Of a DNA stretch of 64,000 nt, positions 17,280-46,538 are shown piece after piece (the stretch's first letter is position 1; each line of letters opens with the position of its first letter). The translations under genes were made by a program, and so were the position numbers. The stretch comes from Clostridia bacterium (GTDB lineage Bacteria; Bacillota; Clostridia; Christensenellales; Borkfalkiaceae). The notes below the pieces were generated by a model, which saw only the letters and a program-made list of their open reading frames with translations, searched no databases and was not told the origin of the DNA. The DNA lies in contig CAAGHC010000003.1 of assembly GCA_900769565.1 (NCBI GenBank), forward strand, positions 20,949 to 84,948, read 5' to 3'.

Positions 17280-17492
17280 ACTCGTTCTCCTTTTGTATTT
17301 TCGCATAGCGTTTTAGGTGGAAAAATTATCACCTTAAAATCCACGGGTATTTTAACACATATAACGATAAAAGTCAACGCAAAGCAACTTTAAATAATGC
17401 CAAATATTAACATGTTATAAGTTTTATAAACACGTAAACGAATATTAGAAAAGGACTTTAAGAAAACGTTTTCCTAAAAGTCCTTTTTATAA

Positions 17493-18770
17493 TTAAATTC
17501 CTATAAATGCGCCGTACTCTTTTAATTTCCTTTGCAATTCTTTTACGTCTACGTTGCGAACGTCCGTCTTTTCCTTACACGCCATGGCTATTGCCGTTCC
17601 CGCAGCCTCACCGATACAGCAAACGGTTGGCATAATTCGATAAGATGCTTGTGCGCCGTGGTCAGACGATATACATCTACCAGCCACCAAAAGGTTGGTT
17701 GCCGTTTTAGGTATTAAACTACGATAAGGAATGGTATAATACTTACCTTCAGGGAAGTAATAATGGCTTGTCCCCGTACCCTCTGGACTATGAATATCAA
17801 TATCATAATTGCAAGCGGCAATAGAATCTTCAAATTTGGTAAAAGAACGTGCATCACTTTCAGTAAGTAAATATTCGCCAACAATTTTTCTACTTTCTCT
17901 AACGCCTATTTCGGGTGCAGTCATCATGAGATAGCTATTTTCTAATCCGTCGGCATGTTTTTTCATAAATTCATAAACTTCATACACTTGCTTACGAGCA
18001 ATTACTTCTGCCTTGGTAAGGTCAAACGGCGAAGTCGGGTCCATTTTTACAACTCTAGTAGTATTCAAATGTAATATCCCTGGAATAGGCATCTTTACGG
18101 ACAAAATATTTTCTCTAGGATTGATAAATTCACCCCTTTCAAGCGCTTCTTTATACTCTGCATTAAGACGATTTCTGCACGCCCAAAAACGTTCGATATC
18201 AACGTTCCCAAGTCTAAAACAAAGGGTCATAGGTTGGCATAAGTTATCAGATTCACGACCTAACATCGTGGGTATTCCTGCAAGAAAGGAAAGTTGTGCG
18301 TCACCCGTTGCATCAACAAAATAATCAGCCTCTATTTCAATTAAACCACTTTTAGTAGCAACTGTGACAGATTTGATTTGCTCTCCGTCTTTTTTGGCTT
18401 GACAAATATACGCGTGATAAAGAAGTTCAACACCAGCGTCTTCAACCATATCGTTGAGTATAAATTTAAGTTCTTCTTCCATGAAAGAATATTCGATTAG
18501 TTTACGACTAGTAACGTATTCTAAAGTCATTCTTCTTTCATTCAACTTGTCAAAAATAGTCTTGAACAAACCTGCCGAAAGATTAGTGGTTACACCATCA
18601 ACTTTTGCAAGCGTAGGCATAAACGGATTAACTAGGCAATTTACCGCCGCCCCGCCTAACGCATTCCCTTTTTCTATTAGAAGAACCTTGCGTCCTTCTC
18701 TTGATGCAGAAATAGCAGCCGAAACGCCTGAAAACCCACCGCCAACTACGACGATATCGTATCTTTCCAT
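17493..18770 (-). CDS. FAD-dependent oxidoreductase (FAD_oxidored-type)
   Basis: Dinucleotide-binding motif DIVVVGGGFSGVSAA immediately after the internal ATG, which has a taaggag RBS. The 28 upstream codons of the ORF (to 18854) look non-coding. Confidence 0.75.
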   Translation of the reverse strand: MERYDIVVVGGGFSGVSAAISASREGRKVLLIEKGNALGGAAVNCLVNPFMPTLAKVDGVTTNLSAGLFKTIFDKLNERRMTLEYVTSRKLIEYSFMEEELKFILNDMVEDAGVELLYHAYICQAKKDGEQIKSVTVATKSGLIEIEADYFVDATGDAQLSFLAGIPTMLGRESDNLCQPMTLCFRLGNVDIERFWACRNRLNAEYKEALERGEFINPRENILSVKMPIPGILHLNTTRVVKMDPTSPFDLTKAEVIARKQVYEVYEFMKKHADGLENSYLMMTAPEIGVRESRKIVGEYLLTESDARSFTKFEDSIAACNYDIDIHSPEGTGTSHYYFPEGKYYTIPYRSLIPKTATNLLVAGRCISSDHGAQASYRIMPTVCCIGEAAGTAIAMACKEKTDVRNVDVKELQRKLKEYGAFIGI

Positions 18771-18944
18771 TATTACACTCCTTAATAAAAGCGCTTTTAT
18801 CTGTAGTAAATGATACAATAAAAGCACTAAAATGTCAACGACTAACAATCGCAATTACTCAATTATGAATAAATGTGTTATTTCTGCAAATAAATGTATC
18901 TTTTGTTAAATGTTTTTGTTGTTTTACTATGAAATTTTATAAAC

Positions 18945-30475: not shown

Positions 30476-30604
30476 ACGTTCAAAATCAAAGATAATGCCT
30501 GCATTTCCTTTAACAAATATATATTTAAGTATCGTAATAGAAAAAACAGTCGCATCTGAACTAAGGTTCAAACGCGACTGCATTTGGCGGAGAAAGAGGG
30601 ATTT
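30476..30604 (-). repeat. direct repeat copy B (3' end of the intact tRNA-Ser plus its downstream region)
   Basis: See copy A at 21614-21736. Confidence 0.8.
30541..30580 (-). terminator. terminator of tRNA-Ser
   Basis: CAGTCGC...GCGACTG hairpin followed by TTTTTT on the minus strand. Confidence 0.6.
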
Positions 30605-30676
30605 GAACCCTCGCTGCGCTTATCACACACTACTCCCTTAGCAGGGGAGCCCCTTCGGCCTCTTGGGTATTTCTCC
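30585..30676 (-). tRNA. tRNA-Ser (anticodon GCU)
   Basis: 92-nt reverse-complement cloverleaf: acceptor GGAGAAA/TTTCTCC, anticodon arm CTCCC-CTGCTAA-GGGAG, long variable arm, T arm GAGGG-TTCAAAT-CCCTC, encoded CCA. Confidence 0.92.
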
Positions 30677-32352: not shown

Positions 32353-33630
32353 CTAGTCGTTACAATAAAAATTCGTTGACGGTGCGGCGTCAGGCTTTCT
32401 TCCAACCGAAGTGTTATCCTGCCTACGATTACGAAGTTCAGGTATGGGATTTGGCGCAATTTCAAACCGATAGTCAGCCCCCCTATGCCTTATTGCCTTT
32501 TCAATAACGTTATGCGACGGAACTATTTCGGTAGTTGGATTGATTTGGTTTTGGAAACGGTAAAAATCGGCATCTTTAGGCAGTTTACCAACCTTTTCGT
32601 AGTTTTCTTTTACCGAAGTGAACTGCACGGTTTCAGCCAAAATCTTGCGAACGTAATCAATGTTTTCATGCAAACAAATAGGTGCGGGGAATTCACCGTC
32701 TTTGATAACTTCTTGCCATTCTTTGCCTTCGTACTTTTTAAGAAGTTCAACTGCTTTATGAAGATGTCCGATTTCAAAGGATAAGTTTTCTTCCCAAAGA
32801 TTTTTAACGTACGGGTCGGTTTCCGTCATGTAGCACGACCAGTATAAGTAACATTCACAGTATTCATGCCACAATAACATTTCTAACCACGTAGCGTTTG
32901 CATCCATGAGCGACTCGTACTGGGTAACGTGTTCTTCTTCAACTAATGCAATTTCTTGATATAATCTACGACCGATATCAGAAACGGCAAAGTTGGTAAC
33001 GTTCATATAGTAGTTCATAGTCTGTTGCTCTGCGGCAGTTATAATCATGGTATTAAGCACGGTTTGAACGTCTGCCGTTTTTGCATTGATTGTTTTTTTA
33101 ACGTTGTCAAACGGGTATCTATGATGGCTTATCGTGGGTCTACCCGGCATAATCTCGGTATATCTTCCAACAAGCCACTCGGCGTACACGCCTTGCTCCA
33201 TCTCTAATAAGTTAGCATACCTATATAAATGGTCAAAGTCTTCTAAAAGTGCAAAATCTAAAGCGTTTTTAACCTTACAATCAAGTTCTCGTTTGGCAAG
33301 TTCTGCCGTTAAATCCACAGCCAACTGTTCATAGGAAATTGTGTGTTCTAATATGCTTTCGTTAACAGGTTTTAGCAAGGAAATTTTTAATTGTTGCTGT
33401 TTTTCTACGTATCTAGTAAGCGCTATCTCTCTGCGCAAGTCGTTATCGCTCGTATGTCTTGCTAGTTGATGGGAAAACCAGTTTGCCTCAAACTCCGTAC
33501 CATTCATTAAAATAATACGAGTTTTTGTGTAAGGGTCAACTTCTCGTTTATCATAAGACTTGGGGTAAACTTGTTGCCAGTTTTGTATCATTTTATCTAT
33601 CGGGCGTGATTTTTCGTTAAAAGGATTCAT
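32353..33630 (-). CDS. ferritin-like (di-iron four-helix bundle) protein
   Basis: Two E...ExxH-type motifs (LLEDFDHLYRY / VEEEHVTQYE / FEIGHLHK). Start placed at the ATG after ggagtg; the ORF extends to 33657. Confidence 0.45.
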   Translation of the reverse strand: MNPFNEKSRPIDKMIQNWQQVYPKSYDKREVDPYTKTRIILMNGTEFEANWFSHQLARHTSDNDLRREIALTRYVEKQQQLKISLLKPVNESILEHTISYEQLAVDLTAELAKRELDCKVKNALDFALLEDFDHLYRYANLLEMEQGVYAEWLVGRYTEIMPGRPTISHHRYPFDNVKKTINAKTADVQTVLNTMIITAAEQQTMNYYMNVTNFAVSDIGRRLYQEIALVEEEHVTQYESLMDANATWLEMLLWHEYCECYLYWSCYMTETDPYVKNLWEENLSFEIGHLHKAVELLKKYEGKEWQEVIKDGEFPAPICLHENIDYVRKILAETVQFTSVKENYEKVGKLPKDADFYRFQNQINPTTEIVPSHNVIEKAIRHRGADYRFEIAPNPIPELRNRRQDNTSVGRKPDAAPSTNFYCND

Positions 33631-33807
33631 AAAATTCACTCCTAAACATATTCTCAATGTTTACAATATGATTTAAAACGAGTAATTGTTATTGTGATTG
33701 ATTTATCCTATAAAAGTTTCTTTTGAATTTTTTATTCCAAAATAACAAATACTTGCTTTGATAAAATAATCGTGATATAATTGTAAAACAACTACATATT
33801 AAGGACG

Positions 33808-34740
33808 GTGCATATGAACATACTACACATGAAATACGCAGTAGAAATTGCCAACACTCGCTCGATTAGTAAGGCTGCGGAAAACTTGTACACTTCCCAA
33901 CCCAACATAAGCCGTGCTATTAAATCGCTTGAAAACGACCTTAAAATCAAGATTTTTAAGCGCTCGTCAAAAGGCATTGAAATCACCATTGACGGTGAAG
34001 AATTTTTACTGTACGCTAAAACCGCTTTAGCCCAGATTAAAAAAATTGAATCAATTTACGAAAATCGCAACGAAAAGAAACTTCGTCTTTCTGTCTGCGT
34101 ACCGAGAGCAAGTTATTTTTCTTACGCTTTTGCAGATTTTTCTAAAGGTTTAGACGCAAATGCGTCCGCCGAAATTGTTTATAAAGAAACTAATTCCATG
34201 CGCTCGATTATCAACGTTGTAAAAGAAGAATACGACCTTGGTATAGTAAGATATCAAAGCGCTTTCGATAAATATTTTAATTCACTCTTTGAAGAAAAGA
34301 AACTTTCCTACGAAGTGCTAAACGAGTTTCGATACGTTATGGCGGTATCAAAAAATAATCCGCTTGCTAAAAAAGAAAAAGTTAGCGCAGAAGACCTTCA
34401 AAACTGCATAGAAATCACTCACGGTGACCCGTACGTACCAAGTTTGCCCTTGATTGACGTAAAGCGTGCTGAACTTTCGGAATTTGCTAAAAAGCGCATT
34501 AGCGTTTTTGAACGTGGCGTTCAATTTACACTTTTAGAACAAGTGCCAAATACTTTTATGTGGGTTTCGCCTATCCCTAAAGATTTGCTCGATAAATTTA
34601 ATCTTGTAGAAATCAAATGCGACTTTAACACCAAAACTTATAAGGACGTTTTAATTCACAGAAAGAAGTATCACTTAACCAAACTAGACAACGAATTTAT
34701 TAAAAAAATCGTTGAATCTAAAAACAAATACTTTATTTAA
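33808..34740 (+). CDS. LysR family transcriptional regulator
   Basis: N-terminal HTH (LHMKYAVEIANTRSISKAAENLYTSQPNISRAIKSLE) plus a substrate-binding domain. Confidence 0.85.
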   Translation: MHMNILHMKYAVEIANTRSISKAAENLYTSQPNISRAIKSLENDLKIKIFKRSSKGIEITIDGEEFLLYAKTALAQIKKIESIYENRNEKKLRLSVCVPRASYFSYAFADFSKGLDANASAEIVYKETNSMRSIINVVKEEYDLGIVRYQSAFDKYFNSLFEEKKLSYEVLNEFRYVMAVSKNNPLAKKEKVSAEDLQNCIEITHGDPYVPSLPLIDVKRAELSEFAKKRISVFERGVQFTLLEQVPNTFMWVSPIPKDLLDKFNLVEIKCDFNTKTYKDVLIHRKKYHLTKLDNEFIKKIVESKNKYFI

Positions 34741-34809: not shown

Positions 34810-36153
34810 TTAAATTAAACCTATCATAAGGTTACATGATAAAACGATTAAAACGAGTGCGATAGGATAGGTTGATGCGTAAGCACCTGCAACGTCGTCC
34901 GTACCTGCGGTAGAAATAAGAGTACCGAGTGCGGGCGTAGAAGTCATACCACCGGTAATTGAGCCAAGGTTGTTGAGAAGTGGCATCTTCAACAAGTATT
35001 TAGCAACGAAGAAACCAACTATCATGGGAAAAATTGTCATAACTGCGCCACCGATAAAGCCCCAAGCAACAATACCGATATCGTCACCGATTGCAGAAAC
35101 AAGGTTAACACCACCATCAACACCAGCACCGATAAGGAATAACATAAGTCCTAATTCTTTCAAACTCTTAAGAGTTGCTTCGGGAATTTCTAGAGATAGT
35201 CTACCGATTCTACCAAAGTGTCCGAATACCAAACACATGATAAGTACGCCACCCGTAGTTCCAAGCGAGAACACAGCGCCTGCAAAAAGCGGAATTTTTA
35301 TACCACCTAAAACAAGACCTGCAACTATTGCAAGAGCCAAAGCTGTAAAGCCGAAGTCGTCGCACTTAAAAAGATTTTTCTTTTCCTTTTTCTCTGCGTT
35401 TTCTAAAACTTCAGGTCTTAATAAGCTTCTTTCATAGTTCATGTCTGCTTTAACAAATTTGGGCAATAATTGAACGAACAAAACTACGCCGATAACACCG
35501 AAAGGATATGCAATTGCGTGACCTATGGTAACCATAGTATCTTCCATACCCTTAAGTTTAACGGCTTCGCCTGCTGCCGAATAACCAGGGGTTGAAGTAA
35601 GAGCACCTGATAAAATACCCGACCAGAAATCAGAGCCGTACGGTGATACGAAAGTAAAGATTACTGCTACTGCCGTGCCTGCAAGAATGATTAAAATACC
35701 CATGAAGATATATGTCTTAAAGTTTTTAGCCAAGTCTCTAAAGAATTTAGGACCTGCAATAAAACCAACAGAGCCTACGAACATAACTAAACCTACGTTT
35801 TGAATTACGCTCTTATAAAATTTAGTATTACCTGTACCAGGTTTCAAATTAAGGCTACCTAAAATCGGTGTCGTATCAGGTATCAACGTGCAGAGATAAC
35901 CGAAAAGTATTGCTACTAAAAATACGCCTGCCGTTCCTAAATTAACGCCTTTAATGGTAATTCTACCAAGTAAATATCCAAGTACTGTCACAGCAAATAA
36001 GCCGAATAATAACGAAGATATAGAGAAAATACTATTAACTCCGACATCTGACTTGCTAGCGTTAATGCCACACCATACGCCTATGCCTGCAACTGCGACC
36101 AAAGCAATAGCAATCCAAAGCCACTTAAGACTTTTGCTTTTTTGTTGTTCCAT
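34810..36153 (-). CDS. AAE (aspartate:alanine exchanger / YidE-YbjL-SucE) family transporter
   Basis: Two Asp-Al_Ex repeats (LGRITIKGVNLGTAGVFLVAILFG and GGIKIPLFAGAVFSLGTTGGVLIMCLVFG). No TrkA_C insert. Confidence 0.7.
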   Translation of the reverse strand: MEQQKSKSLKWLWIAIALVAVAGIGVWCGINASKSDVGVNSIFSISSLLFGLFAVTVLGYLLGRITIKGVNLGTAGVFLVAILFGYLCTLIPDTTPILGSLNLKPGTGNTKFYKSVIQNVGLVMFVGSVGFIAGPKFFRDLAKNFKTYIFMGILIILAGTAVAVIFTFVSPYGSDFWSGILSGALTSTPGYSAAGEAVKLKGMEDTMVTIGHAIAYPFGVIGVVLFVQLLPKFVKADMNYERSLLRPEVLENAEKKEKKNLFKCDDFGFTALALAIVAGLVLGGIKIPLFAGAVFSLGTTGGVLIMCLVFGHFGRIGRLSLEIPEATLKSLKELGLMLFLIGAGVDGGVNLVSAIGDDIGIVAWGFIGGAVMTIFPMIVGFFVAKYLLKMPLLNNLGSITGGMTSTPALGTLISTAGTDDVAGAYASTYPIALVLIVLSCNLMIGLI

Positions 36154-36248: not shown

Positions 36249-37859
36249 TTAAACGTTAGGTTGTTTAGTATAGTTAGGTAATAATTGCGGAGAAAGTTTA
36301 GTGGGTTTTAATCCAGCATCTTCAAGTTCTGCCTTGAATGCATCAACGTGAGCAAGCGTGAGTTCTTTAACTTCAACGCTCTTGCACTTTTCACCTGCGC
36401 TCTTACCTGCGTTTCTACCGAATACGATAATATCGAGAAGTGAGTTACCCATAAGTCTATTTCTGCCGTGGATTCCCCCTACTGCCTCACCTGCTACGAA
36501 CAAGTTTTCAACAGTAGTGCTCATGCCGTCAGCCGATATATCTAAACCACCGTTTTGATAGTGAAGGGTCGGATAAACGAGAATGGGGTCTTTTCTAATA
36601 TCAATACCGTACTTACCAAACATACGGAGCATTGCGGGAATACGCTTTTCAATCGTGCCTTCGCCACCGATAATATCAATCATCGGGGTATCGAGCCATA
36701 CGCCTTCGCCGTCGGTAGTCTTAATACCGTTGTCACGCTTTTTACATTCTCTAATGATAGAAGATGCAGTAACGTCACGGGTTTCAAGCGAGTATACGAA
36801 TGCTTCGCCGTCTTTATTTACGAGTTGTGCGCCGAGTGAACGAACTTTTTCGGTAACGAGAGCACCGAAGATTTGGGTAGGTTCAGCAACGCCCGTGGGG
36901 TGATATTGTAAAGTATCAGCGTAAAGTAATTTTGCGCCTGCTCTATAACCTAATACTAAACCGTCGGCAGTTGCGCCGTAGTGGTTAGAAGTCGGGAAAC
37001 CTTGATAGTGAAGTCTGCCTGCACCACCGGTAGCAATTACAACCGTCTTTGCTCTAGCAATAGAGATTTCCTTGGTTTCCATATTCATAAGAACTGCGCC
37101 TGCACACTTACCTTCGGTATCTTTAATAAGTTCGATAGCAGCGGTGAAGTCTACTACGGGAATACCTCTGTTCAAAACTTCATCACGAAGAGTTCTCATG
37201 ATTTCTGCACCCGAGTAGTCCTTACAAGCGTGCATACGTTTTCTACTAGTACCACCACCGTGGGTAGTAATCATAGTACCGTCTGCTTCTTTATCGAACA
37301 TAACGCCGAGTTCGTTAAGCCATTTAATACAGTCGGGAGCGTCGGTAACGAGCTTGTATAAAAGTTCGTGCTTTGCAGCAAAGTGACCGCCACCAAAAGC
37401 ATCAAGATAGTGAATTGCAGGGCTATCGTTGGGCTTATCTGCAGCTTGAATACCACCTTCTGCCATCATGGTGTTTGCATCACCTATACGAAGTTTGGTT
37501 ACCATCATAACTTTTGCGCCCTTGTTGTCGGCTTCGATTGCTGCAGAAGAACCTGCGCCACCACCACCGATAACTAAAACGTCTACGTCGTAGTCGGGTT
37601 TAGAAAGGTCGATATCCATATCGAGAACCCTTGACTTACCTTGTAAAAGGTCTGCAAGTTCGTGAAGAACTTTACCCCCCTTGTTAGGTCCAACTTTTAA
37701 TTGTTCGTAAGCGCTATCGATATAGTCGGGATGGTTTTCTTTCAAAACCGTTTGTTTTTCGTCAGCAGTCATTCTGCCAAAGAGATTTTCAAGTCTTTTT
37801 GCTCTAGTCGCTTCTACTTTCTTCATAGAAACGAGTTGTTCTTCGGTATATTTATACAT
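36249..37859 (-). CDS. fumarate reductase/succinate dehydrogenase-family flavoprotein (soluble type)
   Basis: VLVIGGGGAGSSAA, QYHPTG and GRNRLMGNSLLDIIVFG motifs. No His at the covalent-FAD position (DANTMMAEGG). ~90-aa N-terminal extension. Confidence 0.8.
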   Translation of the reverse strand: MYKYTEEQLVSMKKVEATRAKRLENLFGRMTADEKQTVLKENHPDYIDSAYEQLKVGPNKGGKVLHELADLLQGKSRVLDMDIDLSKPDYDVDVLVIGGGGAGSSAAIEADNKGAKVMMVTKLRIGDANTMMAEGGIQAADKPNDSPAIHYLDAFGGGHFAAKHELLYKLVTDAPDCIKWLNELGVMFDKEADGTMITTHGGGTSRKRMHACKDYSGAEIMRTLRDEVLNRGIPVVDFTAAIELIKDTEGKCAGAVLMNMETKEISIARAKTVVIATGGAGRLHYQGFPTSNHYGATADGLVLGYRAGAKLLYADTLQYHPTGVAEPTQIFGALVTEKVRSLGAQLVNKDGEAFVYSLETRDVTASSIIRECKKRDNGIKTTDGEGVWLDTPMIDIIGGEGTIEKRIPAMLRMFGKYGIDIRKDPILVYPTLHYQNGGLDISADGMSTTVENLFVAGEAVGGIHGRNRLMGNSLLDIIVFGRNAGKSAGEKCKSVEVKELTLAHVDAFKAELEDAGLKPTKLSPQLLPNYTKQPNV

Positions 37860-37870
37860 ATTCTGCCCCC

Positions 37871-38545
37871 TTATTTCTCAATTTCTCTGTTGTTGTAGAG
37901 TTCTTTCAACTCTTCAACGGGCTTATTCATGAGCGTTTCGATAATATCTTTGTACACGCCTTCGTCAATTTCCTTAACTCTTTCGATAAGGTGCATAGAT
38001 TCGGGTGCTAAATATTTACCGTAAAGTCTTCTAGCAAGTTCTGCTACCTGTGGATGTGAAATACCGGCAGGACAACGAGAAGAACATACACCACACATTA
38101 CGCAGTCAAAAGATTCTTCTGCGCAGTTTGCATAGTCGCCACGTTGAGCGTACGCAATGTATTGCATAACGTTAAGACCTTGAGTACAACTCTTGGTACA
38201 AGCGTTGCAACCGATACAAGCGTAAATTTCGGGGTAAAGTTGCATCATAATTTGTTCGCTGGGCTTAACCTTTTCAATGTCGTAAACTTGTTTTACGAGC
38301 GGGAAGAAGGGAAGCGTTGCAACGTACATATTGTCTTCAACTTTGGTTTGACAAGCAAGACAAGCCTTTAACTCTCTATCACCTTTGATACGGTAAATAG
38401 TCGAGCAAGCACCACAGAAACCGTTACGGCAACCACAACCACGAACGAGTTGATAGCCAGCGTATTCCATTGCTTTCATTATGGTAAGACTTTCGGGAAC
38501 TTCGTATTTTTTGCCAAACAAAAAAACGTTTACTTTCTTTTCCAT
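37871..38545 (-). CDS. iron-sulfur subunit (2Fe-2S plus two 4Fe-4S motifs), FrdB/SdhB-like
   Basis: CGCRNGFCGAC...C, CIGCNACTKSC and CVMCGVCSSRCP. Lies 11 nt upstream of the flavoprotein gene. Confidence 0.7.
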   Translation of the reverse strand: MEKKVNVFLFGKKYEVPESLTIMKAMEYAGYQLVRGCGCRNGFCGACSTIYRIKGDRELKACLACQTKVEDNMYVATLPFFPLVKQVYDIEKVKPSEQIMMQLYPEIYACIGCNACTKSCTQGLNVMQYIAYAQRGDYANCAEESFDCVMCGVCSSRCPAGISHPQVAELARRLYGKYLAPESMHLIERVKEIDEGVYKDIIETLMNKPVEELKELYNNREIEK

Positions 38546-38562
38546 TTTAATTTTTCTCCTTA

Positions 38563-39396
38563 TTAATACTCATCGGGAAGTTGGTCAAGTTGGTCCATTC
38601 TGAACACAGGGCCGTCTTTACATACGTATTTAGAACCTACGTTACAACGACCGCACTTACCTATTCCGCATTTCATTCTCAATTCTAACGTGGTGTAAAC
38701 TTGCTCTTTGTTAAAGCCGAGTTCACCCAAGCCTTGAAGGGTAAATTTAATCATTATCGGCGGACCGCAGAGAACTGCAGTTTTATTCGGTTCAAATCCT
38801 AATTCCTTAACGTAAGTGGGAACGAAACCTACGTGTCCGTCCCAACCTTCTTGTTCACGGTCGATAGTTAAGTGAACGTTTATGCTGGGGTCGGTCATCC
38901 ATTCGTTAATGATTTCCTGATAATGAACAAGGTCTTCTTTACTTCTTGAACCGTAAACGATATCAACCTTGCCGTAATTTTCACGATTGTCCCTAACGTA
39001 GTTGATAACCGAACGAACGGGCGCTAAACCGATACCACCTGCGATAAAGAGCATATCTTTGCCCTTGAACGCCGTTTCTACCGGGAAACCGTTGCCGTAA
39101 GGTCCTCTAACCGTTACTTGTTGACCTACTTCGATACCGTGTATCCATTCGGTAACACAACCGCATTTTTTGATTGAAAATTCAACGTAATCTTTATTCG
39201 TTGGCGACGAAGTGATTGAAAACAACGCTTCGCCTACGCCCGGCATAGAAAGCATTGCGCATTGACCGGGTTTATGGATAAAGGGTTTTTGTCCGTCGAG
39301 CGTCAAAACTCTGAAGGTCTTAACGTCGGGTGTATCCTGTCTTATAGCGGTAACTTCACACACCTGCGGAATTAAAGGTTCTCTTTCGTTATTCAT
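38563..39396 (-). CDS. FAD/NAD(P)H-binding 2Fe-2S oxidoreductase (FlxA / sulfhydrogenase-gamma / AsrB-like)
   Basis: FNR-like fold (FIAGGIGLAPV) with C-terminal CGIGKCGRC...C. Confidence 0.75.
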   Translation of the reverse strand: MNNEREPLIPQVCEVTAIRQDTPDVKTFRVLTLDGQKPFIHKPGQCAMLSMPGVGEALFSITSSPTNKDYVEFSIKKCGCVTEWIHGIEVGQQVTVRGPYGNGFPVETAFKGKDMLFIAGGIGLAPVRSVINYVRDNRENYGKVDIVYGSRSKEDLVHYQEIINEWMTDPSINVHLTIDREQEGWDGHVGFVPTYVKELGFEPNKTAVLCGPPIMIKFTLQGLGELGFNKEQVYTTLELRMKCGIGKCGRCNVGSKYVCKDGPVFRMDQLDQLPDEY

Positions 39397-40420
39397 TCTC
39401 TTTACCTCCGAGAGTTTTCATTACTTTAACGATATTCATAGATATCGGACATTTGCTTAAGCATCTACCGCAACCAACGCAACCGAACAAACCGTCGTTA
39501 TTGGTGGGATAGTAAACTAATTTGTGCATAAATCTTTGACGGAAACGTTCTAATTGAGTTAATCTCGGTTGACCTGCACTCATCTTCGTAAAGTCAGAGT
39601 ACATACAAGAGTCCCAACAACGGAAACGTTGAATACCCGATTTAGTCTTAAAATCCTTAATGTCGTAACATTGACAAGTCGGACATACGAAAGTACAAGT
39701 ACCACAACCAAGGCAAGCCTCTGAAAGAGTTTTCCATTCGGGTGCGTTAAAGAACTTGTCCGTTTTGTCCTTACCGAATTCGCTAGCCTTAACGTCTTTA
39801 AGCGGAAGTTTTGCCATAACCGCTTTGATTTGTTCTTTTTGTTCGTTAACAGCCTTATCGTCACATTCTTCGGTAACGCTTTCAAGTTTTTCCATAAGCG
39901 CTTTACCCTTTTCGGTTTTAGCCGTAAGGTAAATATCGCTTTCGGTCTTATACGCTTCGATATCGCCTGCAGGTGCAGATGCGTCTATATCAAAGGTTTG
40001 ACAGAAACAAGTTTCGGTAGGTCTAGTACAAGCCATGGATACGACAACGCCGTGTTCACGCCTGTTTTTCCAGTAGGTATCTACCGGTTCTGCAAGGAAT
40101 ACTCTATCAAGAACTTCCAAACTCTTAACGTCACAAGCACGAACGCCGAAAACTACGAAATCTTCGCTTTCAGAACGGGTATCGATAACTTCAATCTTCT
40201 TTCCGTCCGTCTTAAATTCCATAAGACTTTCGGTTTGTGGGAAGAAGAAGTCCTTTGCGCTACGGTCGGTCTTTAAAGCGTTTGACATCTTCATTCCGTT
40301 TTCATACTTTGCATATACAGCGCCCTTATCACCGTCAACGGGTATATAAAGTTTTGCACTTTCAGATATTTTAGCAAAGAGTGCGTCTAAATTATTGAGA
40401 GAACATTTACGCATTTTCAT
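39389..40420 (-). CDS. 4Fe-4S protein (FlxB / sulfhydrogenase-beta / AsrA-like)
   Basis: CLGCGTCTFVCPTCQC and CVGCGRCLSKCP. Overlaps both neighbours by 8 and 14 nt. Confidence 0.7.
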   Translation of the reverse strand: MKMRKCSLNNLDALFAKISESAKLYIPVDGDKGAVYAKYENGMKMSNALKTDRSAKDFFFPQTESLMEFKTDGKKIEVIDTRSESEDFVVFGVRACDVKSLEVLDRVFLAEPVDTYWKNRREHGVVVSMACTRPTETCFCQTFDIDASAPAGDIEAYKTESDIYLTAKTEKGKALMEKLESVTEECDDKAVNEQKEQIKAVMAKLPLKDVKASEFGKDKTDKFFNAPEWKTLSEACLGCGTCTFVCPTCQCYDIKDFKTKSGIQRFRCWDSCMYSDFTKMSAGQPRLTQLERFRQRFMHKLVYYPTNNDGLFGCVGCGRCLSKCPISMNIVKVMKTLGGKENE

Positions 40421-41405
40421 TTCCCCCCTTGTTTACTGCATCACTAGGCTCTATATCTTCTTTGGTGTAGTTAACTAGCGGTGCACGACTGCCGATTTCT
40501 TCACCTGCTTGATAATCGCCGTAGAATTCGTTGATGTCTTTTATAAACTTACGGTTAAGTAAGTGTAGTGGAATGTGTTGCGGACAAACCCTTGAACATT
40601 CGCCACAGTCGGTACAACGACCTGCAACGTGGAACGCACGGATAATGTGGAACATCTTTTCTTCAAAACTGTTTGCAGGAGATTTATTTTCCACGCCCGA
40701 GTTGGGGTTGTCAAACACACACTTTTCACAAGTACAAGCGGGACAAACGTCACGACAAGCGTTACAACGGATGCAACGTGAAAGTTCGTTTTGCCAGAAA
40801 GCAAATCTTTCGTCCGCACTCATTTTTTCAAGTTTTTCGACTTCGTCGAAACGGTTGCTATCTAAAACGTCCCCCGTTTCGCCCATAAGTTCGTCGTAAT
40901 AAACGTGTTTTTTGCTCTTACAGTTAACGCAACGTTCTGCTAAAACGTCTTTTTTATCAATGGACTTAACGCCGTCGTAAAGAGTTTCAACCTTGATAGC
41001 GTCGCCATCAGAATTTACCGATACGATACCGTCGCCAACGAGCGCTTTAATCTTGTTTACGTCAACCATACCGTCGCAAGGAATACCTACTGCATAAACC
41101 TTTTCCCTATCAAAACGGTGTTCGGTAAGAAGTTGGTTAAAACTGTAAGTATCGCAAGGCTTTAAGAAAACTAAAACCTTTCCTTCGCCCTTGCGGGTTT
41201 CTTTAACTAAATATTTAGAGAAGTTCGCTCCGCAAAAATCGCCGAAAACGAAATCCTTTTTCATCTCTTCTGCGCTAGTGAAAAGTGCAGGTGTTACGTC
41301 GTAAGAAAATTCACCGATTTTCCAACCGAATACACGGTCAACTTTACCTTCGCTTAATAACGATTGCGCCTTTTCAATAAGCATATCACGGGTTATTTTT
41401 TGCAT
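40407..41405 (-). CDS. 4Fe-4S protein, FrhB/FlxC-like
   Basis: CIRCNACRDVCPACTC and CTDCGECSRVCP. Overlaps both neighbours. Confidence 0.6.
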   Translation of the reverse strand: MQKITRDMLIEKAQSLLSEGKVDRVFGWKIGEFSYDVTPALFTSAEEMKKDFVFGDFCGANFSKYLVKETRKGEGKVLVFLKPCDTYSFNQLLTEHRFDREKVYAVGIPCDGMVDVNKIKALVGDGIVSVNSDGDAIKVETLYDGVKSIDKKDVLAERCVNCKSKKHVYYDELMGETGDVLDSNRFDEVEKLEKMSADERFAFWQNELSRCIRCNACRDVCPACTCEKCVFDNPNSGVENKSPANSFEEKMFHIIRAFHVAGRCTDCGECSRVCPQHIPLHLLNRKFIKDINEFYGDYQAGEEIGSRAPLVNYTKEDIEPSDAVNKGGNENA

Positions 41406-41827
41406 CTCAAATCCTCCAATCTCTTGTTTTCACCAAGTTTGGTTACCGTTTGAACAAAGTCGTTCATGGTAGCTGCAAATTTAGCACCTTCTGCCGCCGA
41501 TACCCATTCTACACGGGTACGTTCTCTTTCAATTCCTAGATAATCGAGCATTGAGAAAAGAAGAGCCATTCTTCTTCTAGTGTAGTAGTTACCAGAAGTA
41601 TAGTGGCAATCCCCAGGGTGGCAACCACAAAGGATAACGCCGTCTGCACCACGTTGGAATGCACGAAGGATAAACATGGGGTTTACCCTACACGAACAAG
41701 GAACACGGATAACTTTTACTTCTGCAGGGTAAGCTAATCTGTTACTACCTGCAAGGTCTGCGCCCGCATACGAGCACCAGTTACAACAAAACGCCACGAT
41801 TTTAGGCTTATATTCGTTTACTTGCAT
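41393..41827 (-). CDS. mvhD: methyl-viologen-reducing hydrogenase delta subunit homolog (MvhD/FlxD)
   Basis: IVAFCCNWCSYAGADLAG...RVPCSCRV...GADGVILCGCHPGDCHY is the FlpD/MvhD signature. Confidence 0.85.
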   Translation of the reverse strand: MQVNEYKPKIVAFCCNWCSYAGADLAGSNRLAYPAEVKVIRVPCSCRVNPMFILRAFQRGADGVILCGCHPGDCHYTSGNYYTRRRMALLFSMLDYLGIERERTRVEWVSAAEGAKFAATMNDFVQTVTKLGENKRLEDLRCKK

Positions 41828-43812
41828 ATTGCGTCAACCTCCGCCATAATCTGTTTGCTTGCAAATCCCTTAAGGTCCATAGCGCCTGAAGGACAAGCAA
41901 CCGTACAACAACCGCAACCTTGACATACCGCTTCGTTAACTTGCGCTACTCTGCGAACAAGCGTTGTTCTGTTCGGGCCACGGAATTCTTTGTCTACGTA
42001 AGTAATTGCACCGTAAGGACATACCTTTTCGCAAGACGAACAACCGTTACACATCAATTCGTCTGATTTAGCAACGCACGGGTTACCCGTAAGTTTGTCT
42101 TTTGCGAGTAGGCCTATTACCTTCGCTGCCGCAGCACCTGCTTGAGATACCGTTTCGGGTATATCTTTAGGTCCTTGACAAGCACCCGAAAGGAATATAC
42201 CCGCCGTCGGGCTTTCTACCGGACGAAGTTTGGGGTGCGCTTCGGTAAAGAAGTCGTTAGTGTCCATACTTGCAGTAAGCATGGTTGCAAGGGGACGTGC
42301 CGATTTATCGGGTTCGATTGCCGCAGCAAGAACTACTAGGTCTGCCTCAATCTTAAGTTGCTTGTTAGCAATAAGGTCAGAGCCCTGAACGATAAGCTTA
42401 TCACCTTCGGGTGAAACCTTACCTACCATACCTTTTATATAATGTACACCGTATTCTTCAACAGCACGACGGTAGAACTCGTCAAAGTTCTTACCGGGCG
42501 TTCTTACGTCGATATAGAATACGTAAACGTCGGTATCAGGATATTTGTCACGGGTAAGCATTGCGTGTTTTGCAGTATACATACAGCAAATCTTCGAGCA
42601 ATATTCCTTACCTTTTTCAGCACACGACGCACAACGTGAACCTACGCATTGTACGAATACGAGCGTGTGGGGGTGCTTGCCGTCCGACGGACGAAGAAGT
42701 TTACCTGCAGTAGGGCCTGCAGCGTTCATTAAACGCTCGAATTCCAAAGAAGTGATTACGTCTTTACTTTGATTATAAGCATATTCGTCAAACTTGTCCA
42801 TGCTTATCGGATTGAAACCGGTAGCGGCAACAATTGCGCCGTACTTTTCTTCAACGTATTCGTCCTTTTGAGTATAGTCGATAGCCTTTGCAGTACATAC
42901 TTTAGAACATACACCGCACTTGCCCGTCTTAAGCATAGTACAATAATCTGCGTCGATAGTTGCAATCTTGGGAACTGCTTGCGCAAAAGGAATATAGATT
43001 GCACGACGATTGTCCATACCAAGGTTAAACTCGTTAGGAACTTTCTTTTGCGGACACTTTTCAGTACAAAGACCGCAACCCGTACAAACGTCTTCCTTTA
43101 CGTAACGAGCCTTTCTCTTAATCTTAACGTCGAAGTTACCTACGAAACCTTTGATTTCTTCAACTTCGCTATAAGAGAAAATTCTAATTTTTTCATGTTG
43201 AGCAACGTCAACCATCTTGGGGGTAAGTATACAAGCCGCACAGTCGAGCGTCGGGAAAGTCTTATCGATTTGAGCCATTTTACCACCGATAGTGGGCTTT
43301 TTCTCAACGATATCAACTTCAAACCCAGCGTCTGCTATATCGAGAGCAGTTTGAATACCTGCGATACCGCCACCGATAACGAGCGCGCGCTTTGTAACGG
43401 GGCTTTCACCGGGGGTAAGGGGTGCGTTAAGGTTAACTTTAGCGATTGCCGTTCTACCTAAAACGATTGCCTTTTCAGTACCTTCAACCATGTCCTTATG
43501 AATCCAAGAACATTGTTCACGAATGTTTGCGATTTCTACCATGTAGGGGTTTAAGCCTGCTGCTTGAGCAGTCTTTCTGAAAGTCGCCTCGTGCATTCTG
43601 GGCGAACAAGAACATACTACGATACCCGTAAGGTTATGTTCTTTGATTGCTTGTTTAATAAGCTCCTGCCCTGCTTGCGAACACATATATTGATAGTTGG
43701 CAGAATGTACTACGCCCGGTTCGTTTCTTAAGGCTTCTGCAACCTTTACAACGTCTACCGTGCCGGCAATATTACTACCGCACCAACATACGAATACTCC
43801 TATTCTCTGCAT
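41818..43812 (-). CDS. hdrA: heterodisulfide reductase subunit A-like flavoprotein
   Basis: 664 aa: ALVIGGGIAGIQTALD FAD motif, thioredoxin-reductase-like core, inserted and C-terminal ferredoxin Cys clusters (CTGCGLCTEKCP, CNGCSSCEKVCP, CQGCGCCTVACP). Confidence 0.9.
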   Translation of the reverse strand: MQRIGVFVCWCGSNIAGTVDVVKVAEALRNEPGVVHSANYQYMCSQAGQELIKQAIKEHNLTGIVVCSCSPRMHEATFRKTAQAAGLNPYMVEIANIREQCSWIHKDMVEGTEKAIVLGRTAIAKVNLNAPLTPGESPVTKRALVIGGGIAGIQTALDIADAGFEVDIVEKKPTIGGKMAQIDKTFPTLDCAACILTPKMVDVAQHEKIRIFSYSEVEEIKGFVGNFDVKIKRKARYVKEDVCTGCGLCTEKCPQKKVPNEFNLGMDNRRAIYIPFAQAVPKIATIDADYCTMLKTGKCGVCSKVCTAKAIDYTQKDEYVEEKYGAIVAATGFNPISMDKFDEYAYNQSKDVITSLEFERLMNAAGPTAGKLLRPSDGKHPHTLVFVQCVGSRCASCAEKGKEYCSKICCMYTAKHAMLTRDKYPDTDVYVFYIDVRTPGKNFDEFYRRAVEEYGVHYIKGMVGKVSPEGDKLIVQGSDLIANKQLKIEADLVVLAAAIEPDKSARPLATMLTASMDTNDFFTEAHPKLRPVESPTAGIFLSGACQGPKDIPETVSQAGAAAAKVIGLLAKDKLTGNPCVAKSDELMCNGCSSCEKVCPYGAITYVDKEFRGPNRTTLVRRVAQVNEAVCQGCGCCTVACPSGAMDLKGFASKQIMAEVDAICK

Positions 43813-43827
43813 TTGTATTCTCCTTTT

Positions 43828-44220
43828 TTACTTTGTATATTTCCTGAACGCACTTACGATTGCTTGTTGGGGCAAATCTTCGTCTAAAAGTTCGGGAACG
43901 TCGTCTGCTTTAAGGTGGTTTTTGTCTTGTTCACGTACTACGCTTAATCTTACTGCCTCAACGAGTTTTGCAGGCTCTACGCCACGGGGACATCTGTCCA
44001 CACAAGCAAAACACGAAAGACAACGATAGAGCGATTTGGACTTTAACAAGGGTTCGATATCCCCCGTTTCTACCATGTACACGAATTGATGGGGATGATA
44101 TTCCATCTCGTCGTATGCAGGGCAAGTACCCGAACATTTTCCGCATTTCATGCACTTTCTCGGATTAACGCCACTGCGACGGATAATTTCATCACAAATT
44201 TTTTGCTTGGAATTTTCCAT
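43828..44220 (-). CDS. hdrC: heterodisulfide reductase subunit C-like
   Basis: 130 aa with CMKCGKCSGTCP and CLSCFACVDRCP. Confidence 0.8.
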   Translation of the reverse strand: MENSKQKICDEIIRRSGVNPRKCMKCGKCSGTCPAYDEMEYHPHQFVYMVETGDIEPLLKSKSLYRCLSCFACVDRCPRGVEPAKLVEAVRLSVVREQDKNHLKADDVPELLDEDLPQQAIVSAFRKYTK

Positions 44221-44226
44221 ACTGTT

Positions 44227-45003
44227 TTACTCCTTTACGCCGAGCGCTTCTGCAAGAAGTTCGGTTATGTAAACCACTTGCACGCCCGTGCCGTTCTTTT
44301 CAAGGTTGTATTTACAAAGCGGACAAGCGGTAACGATAACTTCAGCCCCTTGCGCTTTTGCATTCAAAGAAACTCTACTACTCTTTTCCTTTGCAACCGC
44401 CTTGTCTTCCATGGTCATATATCCGCCACAACATTCGTTACGGAACGCATAATACACGGGTTCAGCACCGAGCGCACGAATTAAATCTTCCATGATGGTC
44501 GGATTTTCCGGGTCGTCCATTGCCATAACTTTGGACGGACGAAGAAGTAAGCATCCGTAGTAAGGTGCTATCTTCTTACCCGTAAGCGGATTTACTACCT
44601 TTTCTTTAATTTTGTCAAAGCCCACTTTGTCACGAAGAAGTTCTAAATAATGTAAAACTTCGGTTTGACCTTCGTAAGGCTCTTCCGCCATGTAGTTGTT
44701 TGCACGCAAAGCAAAATCCTTATCGGTTGCCATTGCGTTGTTCGTTTGCTTAATAACGTTGTGACAAGCAGAACATACCGTCACTAACGCTTGACCTTTT
44801 GCATTAGCTTCCTTAAGCGCACGCACCGAAGATAATTTGGTAGCAATTTCATCACTAGACGTAGTGAATACGCCACCGCAACATTGCCAATTTTCAATTT
44901 CTTCTAACGTAACGCCTAAAACTTCAGCACTCTTTCTTGCATAAAGGTCTAGGTCTTTGGCTTTAGTCTTTAACGTACAGCCGGGAAAATAACTGACTTT
45001 CAT
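44227..45003 (-). CDS. hdrB: heterodisulfide reductase subunit B-like (two CCG domains)
   Basis: YFPGC...WQCCGG...CSAC and YYGC...NECCGG...CPLC. Confidence 0.88.
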   Translation of the reverse strand: MKVSYFPGCTLKTKAKDLDLYARKSAEVLGVTLEEIENWQCCGGVFTTSSDEIATKLSSVRALKEANAKGQALVTVCSACHNVIKQTNNAMATDKDFALRANNYMAEEPYEGQTEVLHYLELLRDKVGFDKIKEKVVNPLTGKKIAPYYGCLLLRPSKVMAMDDPENPTIMEDLIRALGAEPVYYAFRNECCGGYMTMEDKAVAKEKSSRVSLNAKAQGAEVIVTACPLCKYNLEKNGTGVQVVYITELLAEALGVKE

Positions 45004-45022
45004 CTGTTTTTGCTCCTATTTA

Positions 45023-46399
45023 TTAAACCATTTGTTCGGGGTGGAAAACTTCGTCGAATTTTTCCGCCGTCAAAAATCCTAATTCAACACACGCTTGCTT
45101 TAACGATACGCCGTCTTTGAACGCCTTCTTTGCAGTCTTTGCAGCGTTTTCATAACCGATATACGGGTTAAGTGCCGTTACTAGCATTAAAGAGTTGTGT
45201 AAGTTGTGGTCCATCTTTTCACGGTTTGCTTTAATACCAACTGCGCAGTTTACGTTAAATGAAACGATTGCCTCTGCCAAAAGTCTTGCCGATTGCAAGA
45301 AGTTGTACATACATACGGGCATGAATACGTTAAGTTCAAAGTTTCCTTGAGATGCAGCCATTGCAACTGCAACGTCGTTACCCATAACTTGAACGGCAAC
45401 CATGGTAACGGCCTCGCATTGAGTGGGATTAACCTTACCAGGCATGATTGACGAACCAGGTTCGTTTTCGGGAATAAAGATTTCACCAAGACCGTCACGT
45501 GGACCACTTGCGAGCCAACGTACGTCGTTAGCAATCTTCATCATATCACATGCGAGCGCCTTGATTGCGCCGTGTGCGAATACGAGTTCGTCTTTACTAG
45601 TTAATGCGTGGAATTTGTTGCCTGCGGTTACGAAAGCCTTTCCGGTAATTTCACTTACCTTTTTAGCAACTAATTCATCAAAACCTTTAGGTGCGTTTAA
45701 GCCCGTACCAACTGCAGTGCCACCGAGAGCAAGTTCTGCTAAAGGCTTAATAGAAAGTTTCAAAAGTTCAACGTCACGTTCCAAACTAGTTCTCCAACCG
45801 CTGATTTCTTGGCTGAACTTAATGGGCGTTGCATCTTGAAGGTGAGTTCTACCACACTTAACAACCCCTTCGTTTTCCTTTTCCAAACGGATAAAGGTAT
45901 CGATAAGAGATTGAACTGCGGGGATAAGTTTGTCTTCAATAACGGTAACTGCAGAAATGTGCATTGCCGTCGGGAAAGTGTCGTTTGAAGACTGACTCAT
46001 ATTAATATCGTCGTTGGGGTGAAGAATTTTCTTACCTGCGATTTCATTACCCCTATTTGCAATAACTTCGTTCGCATTCATGTTAGATTGCGTGCCAGAC
46101 CCCGTTTGCCATACAACGAGCGGGAAGTGGTCGTTAAGCGAACCGCTCATAACTTCGTCGCAAGCTTTAGCGATAGCGTTAACTTTTTCCGCCGTCATTT
46201 TTTCAGGACGGAGTTCGTGGTTTGCAAGTGCGGCTGCTTTTTTGAGTACGCCGAATGCACGGGTAATTTCCCTAGGCATAGTTTCAATGTCCACACCTAT
46301 CTTAAAATTCTCGTGACTGCGTTGAGTTTGTGCCGCCCAGTAACGGTCTGCGGGAACTTTTACTTCTCCCATTGAATCGTGTTCGATACGATAATCCAT
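45023..46399 (-). CDS. fumC: class II fumarate hydratase
   Basis: 458 aa with the GSSIMPGKVNPTQCE signature and a typical FumC N-terminus (MDYRIEHDSMGEVKVPADRYWAAQTQRS). Confidence 0.93.
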   Translation of the reverse strand: MDYRIEHDSMGEVKVPADRYWAAQTQRSHENFKIGVDIETMPREITRAFGVLKKAAALANHELRPEKMTAEKVNAIAKACDEVMSGSLNDHFPLVVWQTGSGTQSNMNANEVIANRGNEIAGKKILHPNDDINMSQSSNDTFPTAMHISAVTVIEDKLIPAVQSLIDTFIRLEKENEGVVKCGRTHLQDATPIKFSQEISGWRTSLERDVELLKLSIKPLAELALGGTAVGTGLNAPKGFDELVAKKVSEITGKAFVTAGNKFHALTSKDELVFAHGAIKALACDMMKIANDVRWLASGPRDGLGEIFIPENEPGSSIMPGKVNPTQCEAVTMVAVQVMGNDVAVAMAASQGNFELNVFMPVCMYNFLQSARLLAEAIVSFNVNCAVGIKANREKMDHNLHNSLMLVTALNPYIGYENAAKTAKKAFKDGVSLKQACVELGFLTAEKFDEVFHPEQMV

Positions 46400-46509
46400 T
46401 TTTTACGTCTCCTTGATAGTAATTTTCTTTCGACCTTACCAAACTGCCGAAAGGTAAAAATCGCATAAAATCCCTTATAATCGTGATTGTATATATTATA
46501 ACAAACTGC

Positions 46510-46538
46510 TTGCAAATTGTAAATGGTTTAATTTGCAA
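46510..46538. promoter_or_regulatory. inverted repeat TTGCAAATT-N11-AATTTGCAA upstream of the fumC-hdr-frd operon
   Basis: 9-bp perfect arms, 110-140 bp upstream of the fumC start, in the divergent region shared with azlC. Confidence 0.3.

Follow-up and report, generated by a model that had tools for sequence, protein, structure and literature searches.

The operon type considered here has been described, and hypothesized to bifurcate electrons, since 2019–2020 for one thermophile. The 'succinate operon' of P. thermosuccinogenes (CDQ83_RS03315-RS03365) encodes a fumarate hydratase, seven Flx-Hdr proteins, two fumarate reductase subunits and a putative succinate transporter; it is transcribed and approximately 4-fold induced under CO2 limitation, and fumarate reduction is assumed to be linked to ferredoxin reduction in this organism (PMC7282089, BMC Microbiol 2020). 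According to its citation in PMC7282089, a 2019 preprint (Koendjbiharie & van Kranenburg) is devoted to the same proposal. In addition, a 2024 preprint on Ruminococcus champanellensis mentions, but does not interpret, that STRING links HdrA with Sdh/Frd and a COG0543-type protein. Here, we analysed a 64,000-nucleotide (nt) stretch of DNA (hereafter, the window) of contig CAAGHC010000003.1 from a Clostridia bacterium assigned to the Borkfalkiaceae in the Christensenellales, which contains a ten-gene operon consisting of a fumarase gene, an Flx-Hdr gene set and a pair of FrdB- and FrdA-like genes (FrdAB). The reading that we favour on balance is that this operon encodes a soluble, quinone-independent, NADH-dependent bifurcating fumarate reductase composed of three modules. 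When compared by published description, the P. thermosuccinogenes operon has the same gene inventory, the same listed order and the same proposed function, but it belongs to a thermophilic member of the Hungateiclostridiaceae, whereas the operon analysed here belongs to the gut and rumen Christensenellales type. The novelty implied in a first-pass annotation of the window was thus too strong, because the same operon and the same hypothesis are found in PMC7282089; its statement that no bacterial enzyme of this composition has been characterized agrees with the literature, in which we found none. What this study adds is breadth and modular variants rather than a new concept: synteny statistics, variants that lack flx genes or are linked to a NuoF-like gene, a fusion protein, and the placement of the flavoprotein by fold and by phylogeny.

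Several better-known systems share parts with the operon. For its Flx-Hdr part, one such system is FlxABCD-HdrABC of Desulfovibrio vulgaris, reportedly treated by Ramos et al. in 2015. All seven of its subunit types are also present in the window and match at the domain level, although the gene order here is hdrB-hdrC-hdrA-flxD-flxC-flxB-flxA and not flxABCD-hdrABC. The proposed high-potential acceptor also differs, being the DsrC disulfide in Desulfovibrio and FrdAB/fumarate here; no DsrC gene was present among the scanned open reading frames (ORFs) of the window. The methanogen HdrABC-MvhAGD and Fdh-Hdr complexes (5odc, 7bkb and 8rvu) contain clear homologues of the HdrA, HdrB, HdrC and MvhD proteins of the window, and the proposed bifurcation site and ferredoxin branch are the same. 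In these complexes, however, a hydrogenase or formate dehydrogenase takes the place of the NAD(P)H-type Flx donor, CoM-S-S-CoB is the acceptor instead of the proposed fumarate reached through FrdAB, and HdrB is ~35–45 residues longer at the C-terminus than that of the window.

The FrdAB part can be compared with two other enzymes. In methanogen thiol:fumarate reductase (TfrAB), the flavoprotein lacks the His for covalent FAD binding, as it does here (a true TfrA representative has Gly at this position), and both systems combine an iron-sulphur (Fe-S) subunit with CCG domains. TfrA nevertheless has a C-terminal domain that the window flavoprotein does not have, and Tfr uses CoM-SH and CoB-SH without HdrA or Flx, whereas the operon contains both. 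In the type E succinate:quinone reductase/methylmenaquinol:fumarate reductase (SdhABE), a CCG protein directly partners an SdhAB-type pair, and the prediction of a [4Fe-4S] cluster at the last SdhB-type position is a further likeness to our locus; SdhABE is, however, membrane-associated and quinone-linked, whereas the CCG protein here is part of a full HdrABC module. The MetFV-HdrABC-MvhD complex of acetogens follows the same principle, with Hdr/MvhD attached to a non-disulfide high-potential reductase; its terminal enzyme is methylene-tetrahydrofolate reductase, and it has no Flx or Frd subunits. The analogies to Flx-Hdr, MetFV-Hdr and Tfr that the first-pass annotation had drawn hold.

Organization of the operon

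The ORF listing showed ten consecutive ORFs on the minus strand from 46399 to 36249, in the order (5' to 3') fumC-hdrB-hdrC-hdrA-mvhD/flxD-flxC-flxB-flxA-frdB-frdA, followed 95 nt after frdA by an AspT/YidE-type permease gene. The features are as follows (lengths in amino acids, aa; domain and family calls were made with Pfam models and with NCBIfam models and their curated cut-offs).

45023..46399, minus strand: fumC, class II fumarate hydratase, 458 aa; Lyase_1 and FumaraseC_C; TIGR00979 711 bits versus a cut-off of 665
44227..45003, minus strand: HdrB-like protein, 258 aa; PF02754, two CCG domains, each a predicted non-cubane [4Fe-4S] site
43828..44220, minus strand: HdrC-like protein, 130 aa, 2x[4Fe-4S]; Fer4_17/Fer4_8; TIGR03290 best, 62 bits, below cut-off
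41818..43812, minus strand: HdrA, flavoprotein, 664 aa; HdrA2 model 792 bits; cysteine motifs for six [4Fe-4S] clusters
41393..41827, minus strand: MvhD/FlxD, 144 aa, [2Fe-2S] connector to HdrA; FlpD 3.9e-55, full length
40407..41405, minus strand: FlxC-like Fe-S protein, 332 aa; Fer4_8/Fer4_9 dicluster at residues 207-278; overlaps both neighbours
39389..40420, minus strand: FlxB-like Fe-S protein, 343 aa; AsrA/sulfhydrogenase-beta type; Fer4_22 1.2e-29
38563..39396, minus strand: FlxA-like NAD(P)H flavoprotein, 277 aa; FAD_binding_6, NAD_binding_1 and DHODB_Fe-S_bind ([2Fe-2S])
37871..38545, minus strand: FrdB-like protein, 224 aa; Fer2_4 and Fer4; [2Fe-2S] and two full CxxCxxCxxxC motifs (2x[4Fe-4S])
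36249..37859, minus strand: FrdA-like flavoprotein, 536 aa; FAD_binding_2 2.7e-69; non-covalent FAD predicted
34810..36153, minus strand: AspT/YidE/YbjL-family (AAE) permease, 447 aa; two Asp-Al_Ex domains; TIGR01625 141 bits versus a cut-off of 72

The intergenic gaps are 19, 6, 15, 17 and 11 nt, and four junctions overlap by 10, 13, 14 and 8 nt, the 10-nt overlap being that of the mvhD/flxD ORF with the hdrA stop. The first-pass annotation had described ten unbroken minus-strand genes with gaps of at most 19 nt and four overlapping junctions of 8–14 nt; its coordinates and gaps were reproduced, and the overlaps lie at exactly the junctions it named. Each ORF was started at the first start codon after the preceding stop, and these starts are probably right, because homologues span 95–100% of each ORF.

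The gene identities also stood up to the Pfam and NCBIfam hidden Markov model searches that had been suggested along with them. HdrA is a full-length homologue of M. wolfeii HdrA (5odc_A; 694 bits, aligned over residues 3-661). Compared with 5odc_A, its ferredoxin domains (N-terminal, inserted and C-terminal) keep their cysteine motifs except at one residue, where the query has Cys and 5odc_A has Ala; the inserted ferredoxin domain has a 5-residue insertion. By analogy, the FAD of HdrA is presumed to be the bifurcating site. HdrB has the two CCG domains reported earlier and keeps both C...CCG...CxxC cysteine sets, and it matches the HdrB chain 8rvv_B with 124 bits over residues 1-235. Its top NCBIfam match is SdhE, the anchor of methylmenaquinol:fumarate reductase (148 bits versus a cut-off of 500), ahead of the HdrB model (140 bits, also below its cut-off). 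HdrC carries the two expected CxxCxxCxxxCP motifs, CMKCGKCSGTCP and CLSCFACVDRCP. Among the Flx-like subunits, FlxB matches the ShyB (181 bits) and AsrA (146 bits) models below their cut-offs, and FlxA matches models of the AsrB/HydG-gamma type with 210–238 bits. From this domain composition, the FlxA-like subunit is presumed to be the entry site of NADH.

The FrdA-like flavoprotein and its FrdB-like partner

The flavoprotein contains both the HPTG motif and GRNRLMGNSLLD. In the alignment to Escherichia coli SdhA, Asn129 takes the place of His45, to which FAD is covalently bound, and this Asn is invariant throughout a family of related proteins that share an N-terminal extension. Both motifs and the absence of the His had been noted in the first-pass annotation. 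The dicarboxylate catalytic residues are invariant in an alignment to E. coli SdhA and 29 relatives: H320, T336, E337, R361, H433 and R468 correspond to H242, T254, E255, R286, H354 and R399 of SdhA. These residues are also common to NadB. The Sdh C-terminal helical domain (PF02910) gave no match in the flavoprotein, and alignments to SdhA stop near residue 500. The protein has instead a 90-aa N-terminal extension with a conserved HPDY...GxNKG signature, which is found family-wide. In an AlphaFold2 model (mean predicted local distance difference test score, 94.7), the extension (residues 1-90) is modelled as a small helical unit with high confidence as well; it may compensate for the absence of the Sdh C-terminal domain or provide a surface on which partner subunits dock.

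The best fold match of the flavoprotein in the PDB is E. coli FrdA (1kf6_A; E 3.9e-37, TM-score 0.71), followed by mycobacterial Sdh1, Shewanella Fcc3 and SdhA, with L-aspartate oxidase at rank 36. In a neighbour-joining tree of 23 sequences labelled by NCBIfam, the flavoprotein is placed among the N-extension proteins (bootstrap 97–100 for its closest neighbours, ~50 for the family as a whole), and the sister group of this clade consists of flavoproteins of ~400 residues. Two NadB representatives above the NadB cut-off lie elsewhere in the tree, as do the TfrA and Sdh/Frd representatives that pass theirs. The phylogenetic placement proposed in the first-pass annotation has thus been made, and the flavoprotein groups with neither NadB nor AprA. 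Together, the alignment, the fold and the gene context indicate that the protein is likely a fumarate/succinate enzyme with an intact active site. Fumarate had already been named as the likely acceptor, a view that is upheld by the complete dicarboxylate site, the FrdA-like fold and the fumarase gene in the operon. We also weighed NadB as an annotation of the flavoprotein but dismissed it in view of the scores, the tree, the fold ranking and the gene context.

The FrdB-like protein has 12 Cys residues that do not vary among nine homologues with widely differing gene contexts. Its last cluster is predicted to be [4Fe-4S] where classical SdhB has [3Fe-4S], because the full fourth Cys is present; a [4Fe-4S] cluster at this position is the pattern of Sdh and Tfr enzymes partnered with CCG-domain proteins. 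The FrdB-like label is based on moderate similarity: a profile built from these homologues finds the FrdB proteins of E. coli (3.9e-9) and W. succinogenes (1e-8) in the PDB through the [2Fe-2S] domain, and the window protein matches the N-terminal region of the TfrB model with E 7.5e-10. The protein carries no CCG domain. TfrB is a single polypeptide, whereas its counterpart here is spread over three genes; positions 19-99, 133-221 and 262-487 of the TfrB model are matched successively by the FrdB-like protein, HdrC and HdrB (38, 25 and 42 bits, respectively, versus a cut-off of 385). A natural FrdB-FrdA fusion protein of 727 aa (P0122; L087:5250-7433), whose FrdB part is 37% identical over 224 aa and whose flavoprotein part is 56% identical, suggests that FrdB and FrdA form a physical pair.

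Conservation of the operon in Christensenellales

In a species-representative genome collection, 557 matched stretches, from >500 species-level genomes, encode a relative of the FrdA-like protein. Synteny was counted in the best 80 of the 557 stretches, and these 80 are all of Christensenellales type. At the best-matching loci, which are from metagenome-assembled genomes (MAGs) of gut and rumen Christensenellales, the FrdA proteins are 82–95% identical. The nine-gene core hdrB-hdrC-hdrA-mvhD-flxC-flxB-flxA-frdB-frdA is colinear in all 56 loci with a complete hdrB, so that the gene-order comparison outlined in the first-pass annotation gave a conserved order in every informative relative. The median identity in those loci is only 54–63% for FlxB, FlxC, HdrC and HdrB, and the identities of these four subunits go down to ~50–63%. 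The tight linkage of Hdr to FrdAB is thus a conserved feature, and the operon is nearly universal in the sampled Christensenellales loci.

The two ends of the operon are more variable. Of 69 related loci, 60 have a permease gene no more than 700 nt downstream of frdA, and fumC is located directly upstream of hdrB in 45 of 54 loci. The earlier claim that a fumarase heads the operon therefore holds for the window and for these 45 loci and is not universal: the head position is occupied by a lactate dehydrogenase-type gene in L024, by an AAE permease gene in L023 and L025, or by nothing related. The head gene of L024 (1637-2587; a Christensenellaceae MAG), which replaces fumC upstream of hdrB, passes the L-lactate dehydrogenase cut-offs. 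Its assignment as malate dehydrogenase was rejected on this ground, and the gene was not taken to support a malate route.

FrdAB in more distant loci

Outside the Christensenellales, the survey covered the literature and the gene context of five representatives of 50%-identity clusters. At L081 (811-9771), four genes for 2-oxoacid:ferredoxin oxidoreductase are followed by hdrA-mvhD-hdrC-hdrB-frdB-frdA, with no flx genes; the identities to the window proteins are 56% for FrdA, 53% for FrdB, 47% for HdrA and 38% for HdrB. As judged from gene content, the Hdr-Frd link persists in this cluster with a different or unknown electron donor, because flxABC are absent. The association of FrdAB with HdrABC/MvhD is thus kept in at least two divergent arrangements.

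Another arrangement has no Hdr. In a marine Gammaproteobacteria MAG (L082:9366-12891; also L083), frdB, frdA and a nuoF-like gene form an overlapping operon, in which FrdA is 46% identical to that of the window and the NuoF-like subunit scores 386 bits, below the cut-off, with the NuoF model. This operon is a candidate for a three-subunit soluble NADH:fumarate reductase without Hdr. L084, a Prochlorococcus-type contig, and L086 contain the FrdAB pair alone (FrdA 43% and 46% identical, respectively). Taken together, the gene neighbourhoods make FrdAB look like a portable terminal C4-dicarboxylate reductase whose donor module (Flx, NuoF-like or other) is exchangeable. Finally, at L088 (8001-11497), a 'short' flavoprotein of ~400 aa from the sister clade (~40% identical), which lacks the N-terminal extension, is encoded directly upstream of the genes for class I fumarase alpha and beta.

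Two of these loci deserve separate mention. The order at L084 (8001-10357) is frdA followed by frdB, and the 90% cluster of this contig's protein includes WP_413360575.1 from Prochlorococcus sp. MIT 1201; the presence of an FrdAB-type module in an oxygenic phototroph was unexpected. The neighbourhood of L088 also holds a ComA gene (phosphosulfolactate synthase family).

Proposed reaction and alternative explanations

The reaction that we propose is 2 NADH + Fd(ox, 2 e-) + fumarate -> 2 NAD+ + Fd(red) + succinate, where Fd is ferredoxin. NADH would be oxidized at FlxA (FAD and [2Fe-2S]), and electrons would pass through the Fe-S clusters of FlxB and FlxC and the [2Fe-2S] cluster of MvhD/FlxD to the FAD of HdrA, where the pair would be bifurcated. 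The low-potential electron would leave through the ferredoxin-like domains of HdrA to ferredoxin. The high-potential electron would travel through HdrC and the two CCG clusters of HdrB, enter the cluster chain of the FrdB-like protein ([4Fe-4S], [4Fe-4S], [2Fe-2S]) and from there reach the non-covalent FAD of the FrdA-like subunit, at which fumarate would be reduced. FumC would make fumarate from malate, the AAE-type permease would move C4-dicarboxylate, probably as succinate export, and reduced ferredoxin would be re-oxidized by a hydrogenase, one of which is encoded in the window, or by Rnf. The outcome would be energy conservation, or H2 formation from NADH, without quinones or cytochromes.

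We infer that all of these subunits except FumC and the permease may form a single physical complex. A direct transfer from HdrB to FrdB is suggested because SdhE tops the curated matches of HdrB and because the FrdB-like protein, HdrC and HdrB fit successive segments of TfrB; FrdAB has no obvious means of using a thiol, because it has no CCG domain. The complete fourth Cys in the last cluster motif of FrdB likewise fits the precedent of a CCG protein docked onto an FrdB-type protein. Coupling to ferredoxin is in turn supported by the flx-less L081 cluster, which adjoins genes for a ferredoxin-using 2-oxoacid:ferredoxin oxidoreductase. With potentials of -320 mV for NADH, ~+30 mV for fumarate and ~-420 mV or lower for ferredoxin, the coupled reaction is exergonic.

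Several points weigh against this proposal. The flavoprotein is below every curated cut-off (TfrA, 338 versus 718 bits; Sdh/Frd TIGR01812, 277 versus 567; NadB TIGR00551, 272 versus 453), it is without the Sdh C-terminal domain, and the deep nodes of its neighbour-joining tree have bootstrap values of only ~50%. No biochemical, enzymological or structural study of any member of the operon type was found in the literature. To our knowledge, FlxABCD-HdrABC has never been shown in vitro to bifurcate, and we know of no succinate production by cultured Christensenella. Lastly, fumarate reduction by NADH alone already has a large driving force and does not require bifurcation, and the gammaproteobacterial relative with a single NuoF-like subunit appears to link NADH to fumarate.

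The last of these points lead to a simpler enzyme, a non-bifurcating NADH:fumarate oxidoreductase in which Flx and Hdr serve only to connect NADH with FrdAB, without any reduction of ferredoxin. Uncoupled, the NADH:fumarate reaction is strongly exergonic, and the L082 arrangement indicates that a link through just a NuoF-like subunit is feasible. Such an enzyme would, however, leave the retention of a full-length HdrA, complete in its cluster motifs, with MvhD, HdrB and HdrC in 56 of 56 loci as a costly arrangement if one subunit were enough. Moreover, in all Hdr complexes whose structures have been solved to date (PDB), bifurcation takes place at HdrA, and the flx-less variant stands next to a ferredoxin-dependent oxidoreductase; we regard the uncoupled enzyme as unlikely. 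Alternatively, the operon might encode two enzymes that communicate through a soluble thiol/disulfide couple, with Flx-Hdr reducing a disulfide, much as suggested for DsrC in Desulfovibrio, and a thiol:fumarate reductase re-oxidizing the thiol in the manner of methanogen TfrAB. TfrA is indeed the best curated model for the flavoprotein, both CCG sites, at which the heterodisulfide binds in methanogens, are still present in HdrB, and Flx-Hdr was described as passing electrons to 'ferredoxin (and thiols)' in PMC7282089. HdrB is nevertheless the only CCG protein in the operon, and the FrdB-like protein has no CCG domain, which leaves FrdAB alone without a recognizable thiol-oxidation site. No DsrC or CoM/CoB biosynthesis genes were found in the operon or in the annotated parts of the window, and relatives of FrdAB pair with quite different partners, all of which makes the involvement of a thiol couple rather improbable.

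The identity of the substrate and the direction of the reaction can be questioned in a similar manner. The flavoprotein might be an L-aspartate oxidase-like enzyme or a reductase of another unsaturated acid served by Hdr/Flx, given that it passes no fumarate reductase equivalog cut-off, that its NadB and Sdh/Frd scores are nearly equal (272 versus 277 bits), that its catalytic residues are common to NadB and that the FAD_binding_2 superfamily has many specificities (e.g. urocanate reductase). We consider this very improbable, however: the flavoprotein is separate in the tree from two NadB representatives that pass the cut-off, FrdA, SdhA and Fcc3 outrank NadB in the fold search, it invariably comes with an Fe-S subunit of the FrdB type, whereas NadB has none, and the operon contains a fumarase gene, as does the immediate neighbourhood of the sister 'short' clade. 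As for direction, bifurcating enzymes are reversible in principle, and neither fumarase nor the transporter implies a direction. The complex could then oxidize succinate, driven by the co-oxidation of reduced ferredoxin, and reduce 2 NAD+ (confurcation), with fumarase leading on to malate. This reverse reaction is, however, endergonic by ~50 kJ/mol, as calculated from textbook standard potentials, and the P. thermosuccinogenes operon belongs to a succinate-producing pathway (PMC7282089), so that reverse operation is hardly to be expected.

On these grounds, we retain the bifurcating fumarate reductase as the preferred reading. Its fullest form, in which a true bifurcating NADH:ferredoxin/fumarate oxidoreductase without a thiol step is standard in Christensenellales and uses a portable, hitherto unclassified N-extension FrdAB module that evolution would have joined to Hdr/Flx, to Hdr without Flx or to a NuoF-like subunit, seems to us about evenly poised between right and wrong.

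Transporter, expression signals and neighbouring genes

The permease gene downstream of frdA agrees with the AAE-like transporter noted in the first-pass annotation, as its product has two Asp-Al_Ex domains and passes the TIGR01625 cut-off. Based on family membership and position, it is a candidate C4-dicarboxylate or succinate transporter. Two further features flank the operon and its permease gene.

46495..46523, minus strand: promoter-like site; TTTACA, 17 nt, TATAAT, extended -10 TG; 11/12 matches, joint best of the region
33808..34740, plus strand: LysR-family regulator gene; HTH_1 and LysR_substrate; no equivalog cut-off passed; convergent with the permease gene

The promoter-like site is located ~95 nt upstream of the fumC start, and it is suggestive only, because the number of such sites in the region is no higher than expected by chance. 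In Rfam and tRNA scans of the window, a tRNA-Ser gene was the sole match, with no riboswitch ahead of the operon, and a terminator scan gave nothing convincing at the ends of the operon, the number of sites being at chance level. Just past the LysR regulator gene, a 434-aa ORF on the minus strand (32353-33657) has no Pfam or NCBIfam match.

A monomeric [FeFe] hydrogenase of group B1 (TIGR04105, 575 bits versus a cut-off of 450) is encoded elsewhere in the window (15858-17306, minus strand), and the adjoining region (17493-18854) encodes a PF12831 FAD-dependent oxidoreductase. From its family assignment, the hydrogenase is a possible sink for reduced ferredoxin. Between this hydrogenase gene and the operon, the segment 21976-30676 has a G+C content of 0.41–0.44, compared with 0.34–0.38 in the flanks. 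A SHOCT-domain protein, a PARG-type protein of the microbial kind, a trypsin-like protease of 920 aa and a serine recombinase are encoded there, and the segment stops near the tRNA-Ser gene (30585-30676). These features suggest that the segment may be an integrated element.

Implications

If the proposed reaction is correct, fumarate would be added to the few high-potential acceptors known to drive flavin-based electron bifurcation. HdrBC would feed a reductase directly rather than reduce a disulfide, which bears on the question of what bacterial Flx-Hdr complexes reduce. The energy gain from fumarate reduction in Clostridia that are free of quinones and cytochromes would also be explained. 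The Christensenellales of the gut are a health-associated and heritable group that feeds H2 to methanogens. In these quinone-free gut bacteria, the operon would allow electrons to flow from NADH to reduced ferredoxin and on to H2 for methanogens, at the expense of fumarate.

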